This document shows, piece after piece, positions 2,402 to 63,784 of a stretch of 64,000 nt of DNA. Both the position numbers and the translations under genes were made by a program. Position 1 is the first letter of the stretch. The number at the start of each line of letters is the position of its first letter. The notes beneath the pieces were generated by a model. The model saw nothing but the letters and a program-made list of their open reading frames with translations. It was not told the DNA's origin and ran no database searches. Source of the DNA: a virus. Lineage: Duplodnaviria; Caudoviricetes. The stretch covers positions 1 through 64,000 of the IMG/VR virus record IMGVR_UViG_3300020079_000007, one strand, 5' to 3'.

Positions 2402-3892
2402 TTAACAACCTTTTACGATTTTGTAAATTGCCTCAGCGTCAGTCATATCCTTATCAATCTGCATCTTTAATGCAACATCTAAGATATGCTTAAACTTTGG
2501 ACTTGGCTTCATACCTTTGCCAATCAGGAAGTCTCCTGTGATAATTGGCTTTGGCATTGGCTTACCGATAACTGACTGAATGATAGGCTTCTCTAAAGAC
2601 TTTTCAATACCAACCCAAGCATCGCTAACTGTCTTAACACAAGCTGACCCATCAGCTTTTGCTAACATAATCAGTTTATCAAAAATAGGGTTTGAAGTAA
2701 TTTCCCAAACTGCTTTCTTTGACTTCATATCGCCTAACTGATGAGCTCGCATATGTAAACGAACCAGCTCACGAACTGTTTCGCTGTCGTCGTTTGTCAT
2801 ACCGATACTTTTGCAAATATCGTATGCAATAGGAGCACCATCAACATCGTGACTTGATACCTTAGGGATTGACTCTGTAAACTCTTTACTTCCAATTTTG
2901 AAAGTATTTGTTTTCATTCCTAAAGTTGAATGTGCTTTACCAATGTCGTGTAAGAGAGCAGCCATCATCATAACAAAACGAGTATGCTCATCAAAGTCTT
3001 TTGATAACTCTGCCATTCTTTTCATAACGATTAAGGTATGGTCCCAAGCAGTTCCGTGGGCCTTAGGTGTTAAGTGTGTAAAATCTACAATCTCATCGCC
3101 CTTAAACTCTTTACCGTTGTCGTCAACCCAGATTGAACCTTCAGAGTGCCACATCCAAGACTGAGCAACATTTCGCAGATCAACCATAACTGAAGTTAAT
3201 CCTAATGAAGTTAAAACTCTTGATGCTAAAACAAACTCCCAAGTATCTGGGAATAAGAACTTACCTGCAAAAGTTTTCTCCAGTTCTTTCAGCTGTCTTT
3301 CAGCAGATACTTCAGTAAAAGAAAAATTCCAATCGAGAACTTCTCTTTTTGTGTAAGCTGACTTAAAACCTTTTGAAGCAAGGAAACGAACAAAACGGAA
3401 GATTCTTAATGGGTCTTCATTGATGCGGTCCTGAGCATTTCCAACAAAACGTAATGTTCTGTTTTTGATGTCCTGAGCGCCGCCAACCATATCAAAAATA
3501 AAACCGTCAATATCTTCGTAAAGGGCATTCACGGTAAAATCTCTGCGTTCAGCATCTTCCTTGATGTCACGAGTAAACTCAATTTTTGGATGTCGTCCTT
3601 TTGTAATGTCCTTGCGGAGAGTTGCAATTTCAACTTCTTCAAACTTTCCGTCAATTTCAATCAGCAGCATCGTAACACCGAACGGCTCACTGTTATTTGA
3701 AACATTTGAAAACTTATTGAAGATTTTGTGCAGTTCTTCAGGAGTGGCAGTTGTGCAAATATCATAATCGTGAGGCTCAACGCCCATCAAAAAGTCACGA
3801 ACACAACCGCCTACAAAGTAAGCTTTGAACCCAGCTTCATTGATAGGATTGAGAACCTTTGCTTTATACTGATCTTTAATTGTCATAGTCAA
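2402..3892 (-). CDS. cca: Class II tRNA nucleotidyltransferase (CCA-adding enzyme) with HD domain
   Basis: VGGCVRD...DYD, RRDFTVNAL, EDPLRIFR motifs; HD domain (DHT...LLHDIGK...D). Confidence 0.92.
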   Translation of the reverse strand: MTMTIKDQYKAKVLNPINEAGFKAYFVGGCVRDFLMGVEPHDYDICTTATPEELHKIFNKFSNVSNNSEPFGVTMLLIEIDGKFEEVEIATLRKDITKGRHPKIEFTRDIKEDAERRDFTVNALYEDIDGFIFDMVGGAQDIKNRTLRFVGNAQDRINEDPLRIFRFVRFLASKGFKSAYTKREVLDWNFSFTEVSAERQLKELEKTFAGKFLFPDTWEFVLASRVLTSLGLTSVMVDLRNVAQSWMWHSEGSIWVDDNGKEFKGDEIVDFTHLTPKAHGTAWDHTLIVMKRMAELSKDFDEHTRFVMMMAALLHDIGKAHSTLGMKTNTFKIGSKEFTESIPKVSSHDVDGAPIAYDICKSIGMTNDDSETVRELVRLHMRAHQLGDMKSKKAVWEITSNPIFDKLIMLAKADGSACVKTVSDAWVGIEKSLEKPIIQSVIGKPMPKPIITGDFLIGKGMKPSPKFKHILDVALKMQIDKDMTDAEAIYKIVKGC

Positions 3893-7151: not shown

Positions 7152-7691
7152 CTACAAGATCGTGGGACTTAAGAATGTTAAGCACGCCTTCAAGGCAGTA
7201 TGCTTTCTTCTTAAAATTGCCCAATCTCCGTAAGTGCAATCATTGATGTTTTTATTTTTATTACCTAATACATAAGGAATTAAAATCCCAACTGCAACCT
7301 GTCTTGTAGGTTGTGAGTACCTTTCCAACTCTTTACAAAAACTTGCAACGCCTTTTTTAGGATTTTCCCAAAGCCACTCAATTCTACGACTGAGAAACTC
7401 ATAAACGCTTTCAGTCCCATCAGCCTTTTTATATTTAATTGTATCGCGGCCTGTCTCGCAAGCATACAAATCAAGGTTGTACTTTTTTGCAAGTCGGTTC
7501 ATTTTCAAAAACCAAAAGTGAACTTTAAGCAAAGTAAACTTAGGATAATATACCCGCCGCATTTCTTTCTTTTGATTGAAAATTAAAAGCTTCTTATCGG
7601 CTCTTGTCAACTTTCTCATACTTAAAGTCCATCTGTTTCTGAGGCGCTCTTCCGCAGCATTTTGTTTCAGTGCAGAAACCAACCGTTTCAC
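7152..7691 (-). CDS. Hypothetical protein (true start probably downstream, near 7620)
   Basis: Long ORF whose 5' end overlaps thyX. Confidence 0.55.
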   Translation of the reverse strand: MKRLVSALKQNAAEERLRNRWTLSMRKLTRADKKLLIFNQKKEMRRVYYPKFTLLKVHFWFLKMNRLAKKYNLDLYACETGRDTIKYKKADGTESVYEFLSRRIEWLWENPKKGVASFCKELERYSQPTRQVAVGILIPYVLGNKNKNINDCTYGDWAILRRKHTALKACLTFLSPTIL

Positions 7692-32121: not shown

Positions 32122-32595
32122 TTAACTGTCAAAGCCTGTTTCAACTTTTACGAGGTCTTTAGGTGTTTCCTTTTTAAGTTTTTCAAGCTTTTCTTTGTAC
32201 ATTTCAATCTTTCTTTCACAGTCCTCAATGTCTGCTTTATTTTGAAATGAAAGCGGCTTGAAAGATTCCCAGAGCGCACAATTTGATTTATAGCTTTTAG
32301 GGTACTTTTTGTAAAAAACATCTTCTGCTTCTTTCTGAGTTTTTGCGAGGATTCTTTCTGTTTCTGTTGATCTTGTTACATCGCTTCGCTTATTGTAACG
32401 CCCTTGAACTTCTTCGTGTACATACTGAAAATAATATGCATTTAAGAAAAAGTCCTTTTTTGTCAATTCTTCAGCAGCAGCTTTTATAACAGACTTTTCT
32501 TCATCTCTTAATTCAGTATAAGGATGATATGTGTGGTCAAGATGATCTGAATTGTGGCGGGCAACAAAAATCATAATACTCTTCACCTGATACAA
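32122..32595 (-). CDS. Hypothetical protein
   Basis: 157-aa ORF. Confidence 0.65.
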
Positions 32596-32866
32596 ACTTT
32601 TTAGCTCTTCCTTTATAATCTCCTGTGCTTATTATTGCAGCAATCCAACTTATCTGATAAGTCTCTAAATCTTTATTTGTCAAAACACATACACCATCAG
32701 AAGAGTTGACATAAAAAATAAGATATGCATAATTACCAAGCATAAGAGAACGGATTACGATTTCGTTAAGAGGGAGCTCTTCTAAATCAGGTATCTCTAA
32801 AACAAAATCGAAGTAGTGATACTGTTCTTGATGAAATTGATTTTTACCGTTTAAGAATTGAGCCAT
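32537..32866 (-). CDS. Hypothetical protein directly downstream of the terminator/antiterminator
   Basis: 109-aa ORF. Confidence 0.65.
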
Positions 32867-32880
32867 ATAAAAGCCACCAT

Positions 32881-32914
32881 AAAAAGATAGAGGGTTGACA
32901 TAACATCAACCCTC
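32881..32914 (-). terminator. Intrinsic terminator closing the tmRNA/ncRNA transcript
   Basis: Perfect 9-bp stem GAGGGTTGA/TCAACCCTC followed by TATCTTTTT on -. Confidence 0.8.
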
Positions 32915-33300
32915 GGGGATTAGCGCACCGCGCTCTGTTCCTCCACCACTTGCTTTTTAGGAAAGCAAGAAAACCGAGGGTGTCCCGATTTCTCGAAACA
33001 ACTTATCCACCACCAATTTTTGAGAAAAATTGGAAAACAACAGTCAAGGAGTAACCATCAACTCTTAACTGTAGTGGGAGAGTGTAGCCACTCAACCCCA
33101 CCGCCAGCAGTTTTCTGTCAAAACTGCAAACTCTCAAAGGGATCCTGAACCTTTAAGAAGTTTCACTTTCACTTTCAGTTGTCCGAACTCAACTAAAGCA
33201 GGGAGGGAAACCGAAAGCAATCCCTATGGGGATAATCTCCACCACCAAGTTTCATTGATGTTTTCAGAAGGAAGCTTCAAAAAACTTGGAAACAAATACC
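32915..33300 (-). ncRNA. Putative novel structured RNA: four GUUU-hairpin-UGGY-GG units (strand not certain)
   Basis: No ORF, continuous hairpins, four covarying units with RCCA (+) at 32945, 33009, 33103, 33241. Confidence 0.65.
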
Positions 33301-33900
33301 TTAAACTTTACATCGTCCTTTGGAAAAACCATCGGGACAAGTTGCGGATTTTACATTTTTGACTCCGTTAGTCCACCAATGTGTTCCAAACTGACTGTTT
33401 GCAGAACCTTTATGTGATTCTGACATTTTCTTTTTTGACTCTTCAGAAAACTTAAAACCAGTTGTTCCTTTATTGCTATGGTGATTTTTATTGCAATAGT
33501 ACCAACCTTTGTTTCTACCTTCTTTATAAGCCTTTTTCATTGCATCACTCAAATGCTTTTTATATGAGTCAGAACGATAATCAATAAATTTTGAAAGATC
33601 TCCGCCATCACCGCCACTCGCAAGATTGTACTCTGCTTTGCCAATAAGCTTTTGACAGGCTATCATACATCTTTCAAAATGATTTATCTGTTCTTTGGTA
33701 AAAAATCCTGAAATAACAATTGTCTTTTCAAAATTTTCCAAACCATATTTTCTTTGAGCCGCATTTATAAGTCTTCCCGAACCATAATAAATGTCTGTCT
33801 CAAAAGTTCTCCCCTTTCTTAGGGTGTGTTGGCCAATGTAAGTTTTTCCATTAACCAAATTTTTAATCTCATAAATATATCTAATTACTTGTGTTTCCAT
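33301..33900 (-). CDS. GIY-YIG homing endonuclease (Seg-like) with NUMOD3-type repeats
   Basis: YIYEIKN...TYIGQH, YYGSG, E..., YNLASGG, SEESKKKMSESHKG. Confidence 0.9.
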   Translation of the reverse strand: METQVIRYIYEIKNLVNGKTYIGQHTLRKGRTFETDIYYGSGRLINAAQRKYGLENFEKTIVISGFFTKEQINHFERCMIACQKLIGKAEYNLASGGDGGDLSKFIDYRSDSYKKHLSDAMKKAYKEGRNKGWYYCNKNHHSNKGTTGFKFSEESKKKMSESHKGSANSQFGTHWWTNGVKNVKSATCPDGFSKGRCKV

Positions 33901-33925
33901 AAGTAATTAGTATACTTTGGATCTT

Positions 33926-34306
33926 TGGAGCTGGGGAGAATCGAACTCCCGTCCTATGTAACTGACCGCTAACACTTCTTTACAGGCTTAAACTCCATTA
34001 TTTTAGGCTTAAGGAACGGAGCAAAAACTATAGTTCGGTTGTTGATACAATCTCAGAAGCCACCAATAAACCGCTTCTTTTGAAGGTTGCTCTTTTGTGA
34101 TACAACTCCATTTGGAAAGCAATAGCCGTCTGGGTTGCAACTAAGGGAGTTTATCCCCTTAGGTTAGGCAGCGATTCTTGCGAATACGCTGTTGCTCTTG
34201 CGAGCGAAAACTGAACGTTTTGTTGCAGTTATTTTTGTTCGTATTAAGGTCGACACCTTTACCTGATGTTAGAAACCACTTTACAAGTCGAAACCTGTGC
34301 AGCCCC
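33926..34306 (-). ncRNA. ssrA: tmRNA (no encoded 3' CCA)
   Basis: 5' GGGGCUGCACAGGUUUCGAC; 3' GGACGGGAGUUCGAUUCUCCCCAGCUCCA; G3.U70 pair; AUAACU-GCA resume context; tag ORF 34226-34164 ending AA-stop. Confidence 0.95.
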
Positions 34307-34332
34307 TTATATTTAATATATTAACAAGAACT

Positions 34333-34734
34333 TTAGATTAAGTCCAAAATTCTTCTTAATCTTTCTATGTTCAAGTTTGAAAATTGCTTAATCGTATCAA
34401 CATTTTCAATTCCTGTTGAAGCAAGCTTATCAATGTTTTTCAAATCCTCAATCAAGAATCTGATTGCATCTGATACCAAAGCTTTCATATTTGAAGCAAC
34501 AGTCAAATTTCCGTCTTCGATGTATGGAGCCAACTTTGCGTAAGAGTTGTTTACAAACTTTACGAAGTCAGCTGACTGATGATTGTCGTAAACAGCCTCA
34601 CTAAACTTTTGGAGAATTGTTCTGCTCTCTAAGTCAGAACCTTCTGTAAGTTTTATATAGTAGTTGAGGTTTAGTCTTTCACTAAACATAAGAACTTGTA
34701 AAACATAATTCTTCAAAAGTTTTGTATGATCCAT
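34333..34734 (-). CDS. Hypothetical protein
   Basis: 133-aa ORF. Confidence 0.7.
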   Translation of the reverse strand: MDHTKLLKNYVLQVLMFSERLNLNYYIKLTEGSDLESRTILQKFSEAVYDNHQSADFVKFVNNSYAKLAPYIEDGNLTVASNMKALVSDAIRFLIEDLKNIDKLASTGIENVDTIKQFSNLNIERLRRILDLI

Positions 34735-63420: not shown

Positions 63421-63784
63421 ATTGTGGTTTAAATTTAACAAGTACTCTTTTATCGAACTAGGCTGGTCTCTTGGGTCATTAGTTTGTGATATACTTATCG
63501 CCCATCATTGGTGGAGTAATTTGTTTACTCCACTTCATATTGTGTGGTGGGTTATCGCTGTGCCTTGGACATTGTTTGGACTTTATCGAGCTTTTGAGTC
63601 TTTCAGATCTTACAAGTATCGTATTGATGATTACTTAAAAGTAACTGAAATGTTCCAAAGATATGGCGTTAAGAAGAGCGTATTATACAACTTACAGCAA
63701 ATACCTTGCTCCGCAACTGTTGCAGAGCAACTTATAAAAGATTGGGATGTAAAGGACGTTAAACTTTACACAGATGATTTATAA
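63392..63784 (+). CDS. Hypothetical membrane protein
   Basis: Two hydrophobic segments. Confidence 0.65.
   Translation: MYSQMKTQIKLWFKFNKYSFIELGWSLGSLVCDILIAHHWWSNLFTPLHIVWWVIAVPWTLFGLYRAFESFRSYKYRIDDYLKVTEMFQRYGVKKSVLYNLQQIPCSATVAEQLIKDWDVKDVKLYTDDL

Follow-up and report, generated by a model that had tools for sequence, protein, structure and literature searches.

We examined a 64,000-nucleotide (nt) stretch of phage DNA, positions 1 to 64,000 of the IMG/VR record IMGVR_UViG_3300020079_000007 (hereafter the window), which belongs to a 188,745-bp genome record estimated to be 65% complete. On its minus strand, downstream of a transfer-messenger RNA (tmRNA) gene, lies an array of four repeated units (33293-32937), each consisting of GUUU(U), a perfect 8-9 bp stem, a loop, and the motif UGGYG. 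An earlier note, made by reading the sequence alone, had presented the array as a candidate new RNA system that pairs with the CCA ends of tRNAs and tmRNA, and had suggested an Infernal/Rfam scan and a covariance-model search of phage genomes for linkage to ssrA and tRNA genes. Judged by their sequence, the four units do not constitute a new family: they place the array in the wcaG family (Rfam RF01761). We are confident that the locus encodes a structured non-coding RNA of about 410 nt, composed of four wcaG-type units and a conserved central domain, which forms the 3' trailer of the tmRNA on the minus strand and ends at an intrinsic terminator. The features of the locus, in order along the minus strand, are as follows.

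33926-34306, minus: phage tmRNA, tag ATKRSVFARKSNSVFARIAA (ARAGORN; Rfam RF00023, 88.2 bits).
33301-33900, minus: GIY-YIG/NUMOD3 homing endonuclease gene at the tmRNA/trailer junction (Pfam PF19835 and PF07460; phrog_314).
33236-33293, minus: unit m1, with GUUU, an 8-9 bp stem CCAAGUUU/AAACUUGG, a 29-nt loop and the 3' flank UGGUGGAG.
33132-33235, minus: central structured domain of 104 nt between m1 and m2 (alignment A3).
33095-33131, minus: unit m2, with GUUU, stem GCAGUUUU/AAAACUGC, loop GACAG and 3' flank UGGCGGUG.
33039-33094, minus: two spacer hairpins leading from m2 to m3 (fold; alignment A3).
33001-33038, minus: unit m3, with GUUUU, stem CCAAUUUUU/AAAAAUUGG, loop CUC and 3' flank UGGUGGAU.
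32975-33000, minus: m3-m4 spacer with UCGGGA...ACCCUCG (read from the sequence).
32937-32974, minus: unit m4, with GUUUU, stem CUUGCUUU/AAAGCAAG, loop CCUAA and 3' flank UGGUGGAG.
32917-32936, minus: linker with a small hairpin, AGCGC-GGU-GCGCU (32934-32922) (fold).
32881-32916, minus: CCGAGGGU (32916-32909), overlapping the terminator GAGGGUUGA-UGUUAUG-UCAACCCUC (32914-32890), then UAUCUUUUU (terminator scan; fold energies).
32537-32866, minus: gene for a protein of 109 amino acids (aa), of no known family, 3' of the array; its synteny with the array is kept in relatives.

The four hairpin-UGG units are present as the earlier note had described them. When both strands of the whole genome (188,745 bp) were scanned by script for stems of at least 8 bp flanked by GUUU and UGGYG, only these four sites were returned, and the same hairpin rule produced 3 chance matches in approximately 2.1 Mb of control viral strand. 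All four stems differ in sequence, each pairing perfectly, and the 3' flank is of the UGGUGGA type in all but one unit. The 439-nt region folds at -151.5 kcal/mol (z = -4.9), an energy equalled by none of 100 shuffles. Two short open reading frames (ORFs) within the array (33003-33137, minus, and 33020-33148, plus) were discarded as genes: because they fall inside a stretch that is deleted or replaced in two relatives, L217 and L219, we read the region as non-coding. No Rfam family matched the central domain, which contains GAAAGUGAAAGUGAAAC; Pfam and PHROGs returned nothing informative for the small neighbouring ORFs, and megablast of the locus against GenBank phages matched nothing.

The tmRNA and the GIY-YIG gene lie on the minus strand where the earlier note had placed them, and the relatives clarify how they are joined to the array. 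The tmRNA ends in ...CAGCUCCA, with no CCA encoded. ARAGORN found this single tmRNA and no tRNA genes in the 188.7-kb record, which carries a gene for a CCA-adding enzyme (2402-3892, minus; phrog_2244). Relatives were retrieved via the downstream 109-aa ORF, and in none of those examined (L003, L215, L216, L217 and L219) did we find the GIY-YIG/NUMOD3 gene; the array begins 13-16 nt past the tmRNA in L215 and L216, and 6 nt past it in L003 and L217, which is the ancestral arrangement. Because in these four, which lack the endonuclease gene, only 6-16 nt separate it from the tmRNA, the array forms a 3' trailer to the tmRNA. The endonuclease cassette is bordered by the tmRNA 3' end (...CUCCA) and by UUAAGGUAUUUG (window positions 33895-33930 and 33300-33310). 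Since UUAAGGUAUUUG lies directly 3' of the tmRNA in L215 and L216 – relatives with the same tag peptide as the window and 86-90% protein identity – the insertion site is the tmRNA/trailer junction. By this comparison, the homing endonuclease gene is an insertion within a few nt of the tmRNA 3' end, in this genome only. Our scan for minus-strand terminators between the tmRNA and the next gene identified one convincing candidate, at 32914-32890 with its U-run; the scan also flagged 32992-32970, the spacer hairpin running into the GUUUU of m4. The layout of the relatives and the position of the terminator uphold the proposal of one transcription unit, comprising tmRNA and array, that has been split by the endonuclease gene.

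The assignment to wcaG emerged from a permissive Rfam scan, in which m3 and m4 together (32934-33041) matched RF01761 at 41.5 bits (E 2e-6 to 2e-7). The curated gathering score is 42 bits, and m3 and m4 fall short of it by 0.5 bit, which counts against the assignment; the orthologous m3 and m4 of L003 score 42.3 bits and pass the cut-off, and the other family loci that we retrieved score 52-94 bits. The two hairpins of the wcaG model, with their flanks UUU...UGGUG and GUUU...UGGCG, align exactly on m3 (first) and m4 (second), and BLAST matched the m4 region to the wcaG loci of cyanophages S-CAM1, Syn1, S-RIM44 and S-SM2. The GUUU 5' flank and UGGYG 3' flank required of wcaG hairpins are present on all four units.

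A covariance model of a single unit (R1) was also made, using 27 units taken from other phages and none from the window, and was run with filters off. Its top four matches on both strands of the 64 kb were the array units: m4 (39.6 bits, E 1e-9), m3 (35.4 bits, E 2e-8), m2 (24.2 bits, E 6.5e-5) and m1, which scored 13.0 bits locally in the window and 29.4 bits globally in a search of the whole genome. The next-best match in the window (12.4 bits; 63480-63518, plus) and a further weak one at genome positions 183125-183150 (15.1 bits) were taken as chance.

When wcaG RNA was reported, in 2010, it was proposed as a possible cis-regulator or riboswitch in marine cyanophages, and the supplement to that report already names its duplicated UGGYG (Weinberg et al., PMC2864571). 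The earlier note had not recognised the array as a described family and had listed a match to a known Rfam family among the results that would overturn its view; given the match to RF01761, the claim of an undescribed family fails. The window array resembles wcaG in being phage-borne, in its hairpins with 5' GUUU and 3' UGGYG flanks and a variable hairpin in between, in its A/U-rich covarying stems, and in the terminator that follows it, as one follows some wcaG members; the stem sequences CUUGCUU and CCAAUUUUU occur also in wcaG matches of 77-94 bits. It differs in having four units and a 104-nt central domain, whereas wcaG has two units; in its flanks, which are nearly all of the UGGUGGA type; and in a pairing between 5' flank and loop, discussed below, that is weak or absent. 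The setting differs as well, being a tmRNA 3' trailer instead of a presumed 5' untranslated region (UTR) of polysaccharide or high-light genes in a marine cyanophage, although a terminator and the 109-aa ORF do follow. The host phage is not a T4-like cyanophage and is likely a rumen jumbo phage; its relatives come from what we take to be rumen-type metagenome records.

The trailer is conserved well beyond its surroundings, at 94-98% identity to L217 and L219 versus 62-73% for the adjoining ORF DNA. In L219, where the neighbouring protein is 44% identical and the ORF DNA 62%, the central domain with the m2 stem (alignment A3, columns 78-200) is identical at 117 of 123 positions and the stretch from m3 to the terminator at 154 of 163. 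The corresponding values for L217 are 98% (central domain) and 96% (m3 to terminator), with a tmRNA only 65% identical. The central domain is near-invariant in five aligned relatives whose neighbouring proteins are 44-90% identical. L219 is without m1, which also follows the tmRNA in L169, L175, L215 and L216, and the first m2-m3 spacer hairpin is missing or replaced in L217 and L219. On these alignments, the trailer is under strong purifying selection, and its conservation in this lineage equals or exceeds that of the tmRNA.

Pattern scans of viral contigs recovered 13 and 73 unit-bearing loci, and scans of bacterial genome contigs only 3, one of which is a phage-like tmRNA/tRNA cluster in a Mycobacterium assembly. 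The loci carry 1 to 4 units, with 27 distinct stem sequences, every one of them complementary, and with 3' flanks that fall into discrete classes: UGGUGCGGA; UGGCGAGCC/UGGCGUGCA; UGGUGGA(N); and UGGUGGGUC. In alignments A1 and A2, where the evidence is partly circular in that the sample was chosen by patterns demanding pairing, the stems are 96-100% paired and 6 of 7 pairs have changed on both sides, as high a value being reached in 0 of 500 shuffles. Support independent of those patterns comes from the ranking by R1 and from a compensatory change of U-A to C-G in m3 of L219 (alignment A3). The covariation that the earlier note had looked for in homologues is therefore present, with that reservation about the family sample.

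The search for linkage to ssrA and tRNA genes likewise gave a positive answer. In the unbiased set of 73 unit loci, a tRNA or tmRNA gene lies within 1 kb in 40, versus 9 of 115 control loci chosen for chance 14-mer matches (odds ratio 14, p ~1e-12), and within 100 nt in 24 of the 73; the nearest such gene is on the same strand as the unit in 59/59 loci. ARAGORN called a tmRNA in 6/73 unit loci versus 1/115 controls, and we found two more by eye, in L169 and L175, where units that share the m1 of the window lie ~75 nt past the tmRNAs. As a further example, in Mycobacterium phage MrMagoo (L006, NC_053515.1) a unit lies 4 nt past an unannotated tmRNA at 1654-1997 (Rfam, 101.5 bits). Units lie 135-150 nt past the tmRNA in L137 and L134, and 16-52 nt ahead of permuted tmRNAs in L198 and L204. 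The tmRNA of L147 (7082-7464, minus) itself contains a unit, GUUU-CCAAUUUUU-AGA-AAAAAUUGG-UGGUGGGCG, at 7268-7292, downstream of the tag reading frame, a region normally occupied by pseudoknots. In cyanophages, the typical array ends 31-37 nt ahead of a tRNA-Gly or tRNA-Leu gene. The searchable literature does not mention this linkage; the only genes with which it associates wcaG are exopolysaccharide and high-light genes. One flanking sequence of the 2010 alignment runs into a tRNA-Gly-like sequence, so the linkage is present in those data (PMC2864571).

Other elements were observed in the same neighbourhoods. The annotated tRNA cluster of MrMagoo also contains a GOLLD RNA (2597-3014, 182 bits), and a ROOL RNA cut by the locus end (L125:1-486, minus; 215 bits) lies in a 21-tRNA cluster with a single wcaG-type unit. 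Cyanophage tRNA regions also have abiF and manA RNA motifs no more than about 1 kb from their wcaG arrays (L144:11169-11205; L145:409-445; L185:7732-7942), and look like islands of non-coding RNA. In L198:1760-1833 (minus), L145:3880-3960 and L185, the hairpin after the unit has TTGACA, with TATAAT ~17 nt on, and, by this sequence reading, a sigma-70-type promoter of the next tmRNA or tRNA may overlap the end of the element. Because units in these three loci sit just upstream of such promoters, we considered whether the element acts as DNA, either as a palindromic protein site or as an UP-like element ahead of tRNA/tmRNA promoters, and rejected this as a general account: the arms covary, and most units are inside transcripts.

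Within the wider family, the m3-m4 spacer of the window is homologous to a ...UGGUCGGGA...CCCUCGG element found 5' of the first unit in cyanophage arrays. Three of those arrays (L144:10513-10760, L136:1399-1700 and L004:1940-2130) have extra UGGU sites without a GUUU hairpin, CCUGGUGGAGUCAA and CCUGGUCGGGA, the latter being a 9-nt complement of a tRNA-Pro 3' end; they end in a GGGG-UUGAC-CCCC hairpin and ACC-like tails just before the tRNA. In a separate subgroup (L149, L157, L161, L165, L173, L182, L186, L190, L192-L194 and L203) a conserved gene (P0001; ~101 aa, no known family) has a stop codon, UAG-UUU, at which one unit begins, and this unit is followed by a second hairpin, CCCU.AA and a strong terminator. 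Pfam and PHROGs searches with the 101-aa ORF returned nothing informative.

Many units have a further pairing, for which the patterns had not selected, in which 3-4 nt just 5' of the UUU are complementary to the first nucleotides of the loop. The pairings seen are CUGG:CCAG, CCAG:CUGG, CUAG:CUAG, CGAG:CUCG, GAG:CUC and AGG:CCU, and at least three Watson-Crick pairs are present in 34/87 units, versus 9.6 +/- 2.6 when loops are shuffled among units. Canonical units modelled in this way would be H-type pseudoknots: the helix, which is always topped by U-A pairs, would have the invariant UUU running across its groove, and the loop ends in AAA. In the window, the pseudoknot amounts to at most a 2-bp GG:CC pairing, in m4.

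The last unit also has a possible connection to the terminator. The segment ACCCUCGG (32981-32974), which includes G 32974, the first base of the m4 GUUUU, is the perfect complement of CCGAGGGU, which overlaps the 5' arm of the terminator. When the RNA is folded only up to the 3' arm of the terminator, the minimum-energy structure contains a ACCCUCGG:CCGAGGGU helix that encloses m4 and puts UGGUGGAGG in the junction, whereas the full-length RNA prefers the terminator (-57.3 vs -48.3 kcal/mol). These predicted folds make ACCCUCGG a candidate antiterminator strand, and the last unit possibly takes part in a terminator/antiterminator alternative. Across the wider family (cyanophage arrays, by eye) conservation of the antiterminator was inconsistent.

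As to function, we favor the general idea of a docking RNA, an array with several sites for a single partner that belongs to the tRNA world, and assign it a probability of roughly 0.6. The trailer would be co-transcribed with the tmRNA, and the cut that prepares the tmRNA 3' end for CCA addition would presumably release it. Each unit would present a single-stranded UGGYG at the end of an A/U-rich helix, which in canonical members would be part of the H-type pseudoknot, with the UUU strand crossing its groove; the array as a whole would then offer several docking sites to the putative partner, and occupancy of the last unit could set read-through into the downstream gene. Two candidates for the partner seem to us equally tentative. 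One is the free RCCA-3' end of a tRNA or tmRNA, paired as in the T-box and RNase P and stacked on the helix of the unit; the other is a protein, acting either on such ends or in the processing of tRNA operons. Slightly less probable again is the broader proposal that wcaG-type units, in the manner of a T-box, dock uncharged tRNA or tmRNA by the free RCCA-3' end, and that the arrays are a general sensor or sponge, which could set terminator read-through or could shield or sequester uncharged ends during infection.

The proposal of an RCCA partner takes its start from complementarity. UGGYG is the complement of C72-R73-CCA, and every unit beside a tmRNA has UGGUGG(A/G), complementary to the universal UCCACCA-3'. 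This complementarity to CCA ends, over 5-7 invariant nucleotides only, is suggestive. With a set of 157 distinct phage tRNA ends, contiguous pairing of 8-9 nt is reached only by the UGGUGGA class B (tRNA-Ala/tmRNA), class D UGGUGGGUC and the UGGUCGGGA site (tRNA-Pro), and a composition-matched random flank reaches 8 nt with a probability of ~0.23 per flank class.

Comparison with known systems is instructive in both directions. A single-stranded UGG(Y) at a helix end could pair with RCCA-3' in the manner of the T-box discriminator, where a UGGN bulge pairs with tRNA NCCA, and of the GGU-RCCA contact of RNase P L15; the terminator/antiterminator alternative around the last unit and the genomic linkage to tRNA-type genes are further T-box-like traits. 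The units here nevertheless have no Stem I, specifier or conserved T-box sequence, they are repeated, often where there is nothing to regulate, and T-box (RF00230) gave no match at E up to 10 in 32850-33350 or 32500-34500. A second parallel is the 3'ETS-leuZ RNA of Escherichia coli, a sponge derived from a tRNA trailer that reportedly binds the small RNAs RyhB and RybB via Hfq. Both would be functional RNAs taken from the 3' external spacer of a transcript of tRNA type, with a role as a sponge that is reported for the one and proposed for the other; the trailer in the window is much longer and modular. GOLLD and ROOL, too, are phage-borne structured RNAs found among tRNA genes, in the same clusters as wcaG-type units, as noted above for L006 and L125, but they are unrelated in sequence and size, being single folds of 400-600 nt without a UGGYG repeat.

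A number of observations weigh against docking on acceptor ends. Measured against 157 distinct phage tRNA 3' ends, extended complementarity of the flanks was not above chance overall, and a contact of 4-5 bp alone is weak for binding in trans. No covariation was seen between flank position 8 and tmRNA position 69, which is C in the window and G in L003 and L175. A unit just upstream of tRNA-Gly (U73) or tRNA-Leu (A73) always has UGGC, mismatching the discriminator base. The best antisense duplex between array and tmRNA was no better than shuffled controls. The 3'-UTR subgroup has no tRNA nearby in the DNA examined, and ACCCUCGG and CCGAGGGU are both invariant in relatives, hence covariation speaks neither for nor against their pairing. 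Finally, while UGG is kept in the homologues of m1, m3 and m4, as the earlier note had anticipated, it is lost from m2, the least conserved unit, in L217 and L219. The sponge or shield that the earlier note envisaged for tRNA and tmRNA ends thus retains the tRNA/tmRNA linkage and the invariant UGGUGG(A/G) beside tmRNAs in its favor; pairing past UGGYG lacks statistical support, and m2 has no UGG in two relatives.

We weighed the docking RNA against three other explanations. The original proposal for wcaG, a small-molecule riboswitch, would make a unit or pair of units the aptamer that shifts the terminator/antiterminator alternative and so controls the 109-aa gene. The compact H-type pseudoknot of canonical units, with its U-rich first loop and A-rich third loop, resembles the SAM-II and preQ1-II aptamers. 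At the end of the array studied here a terminator competes with an antiterminator, some cyanophage arrays likewise end in a terminator, and in the judgement of Weinberg et al. wcaG is probably a cis-regulator and may be a riboswitch (PMC2864571). In most loci, however, what follows the array is a tRNA, or the array flanks a tmRNA, rather than a protein gene, and in L147 a unit lies inside the tmRNA. The variation in unit number from 1 to 4 and the discrete flank classes suggest several different partners; the units of the window have little or no pseudoknot, and no ligand is known. We therefore regard a riboswitch as unlikely.

An equally unlikely explanation is that the units are processing or stability signals only, GUUU plus hairpin acting as an RNase E-type entry site or exonuclease block that would separate or stabilise parts of the transcripts of tRNA/tmRNA operons, with no partner in trans. 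The classical context of RNase E is a single-stranded A/U-rich segment beside a stem, which GUUU followed by a stem fits, and units do occur at junctions: tmRNA and trailer, mRNA and tmRNA, tRNA leaders, stop codon and terminator. Such a role leaves unexplained the invariant UGGYG and the discrete 9-nt flank classes, the restricted stem sequences, which are kept even in GC-rich mycobacteriophages, the tandem arrays of up to four units, and the near-total sequence conservation of the whole 400-nt trailer.

The third explanation, the earlier note's plus-strand alternative of tandem acceptor-like mini-helices ending in RCCA that serve as mini-tRNA decoys or substrates of alanyl-tRNA synthetase, is very improbable: it has ...UCCACCA and CACCGCCA after short helices, and one helix in which an A.C mismatch of the minus strand becomes a G.U pair, to recommend it, but the minus strand carries the terminator and all family model matches, units lie without exception on the strand of the nearest tRNA or tmRNA, neither ARAGORN nor Rfam found a tRNA-like match in the region, and the array abuts the tmRNA in relatives, leaving no room for a plus-strand promoter. 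The minus strand, on which the earlier note had read the units, is the sense strand.

Several aspects of this locus are new, in that we did not find them described: the four-unit array outside cyanophages, its position in a tmRNA trailer, the conservation of that trailer, and the family-wide linkage to tRNA and tmRNA genes. Since 2010 wcaG has been an orphan candidate riboswitch, and cyanophage papers still annotate it as a regulator of exopolysaccharide or high-light genes. The evidence presented here points to its repeat unit as a modular element of phage tRNA/tmRNA operons, whose range extends well past the cyanophages to a mycobacteriophage and to jumbo phages of rumen type. Candidate partners are thereby narrowed to the acceptor-end world, whether RCCA ends themselves or enzymes and factors acting on them, and phage MrMagoo with M. 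smegmatis provides a tractable test system. If binding to RCCA ends is true, these elements would constitute a virus-carried sensor of tRNA ends, acting in trans or in cis, and the orphan candidate of 2010 would have an RNA as its ligand.

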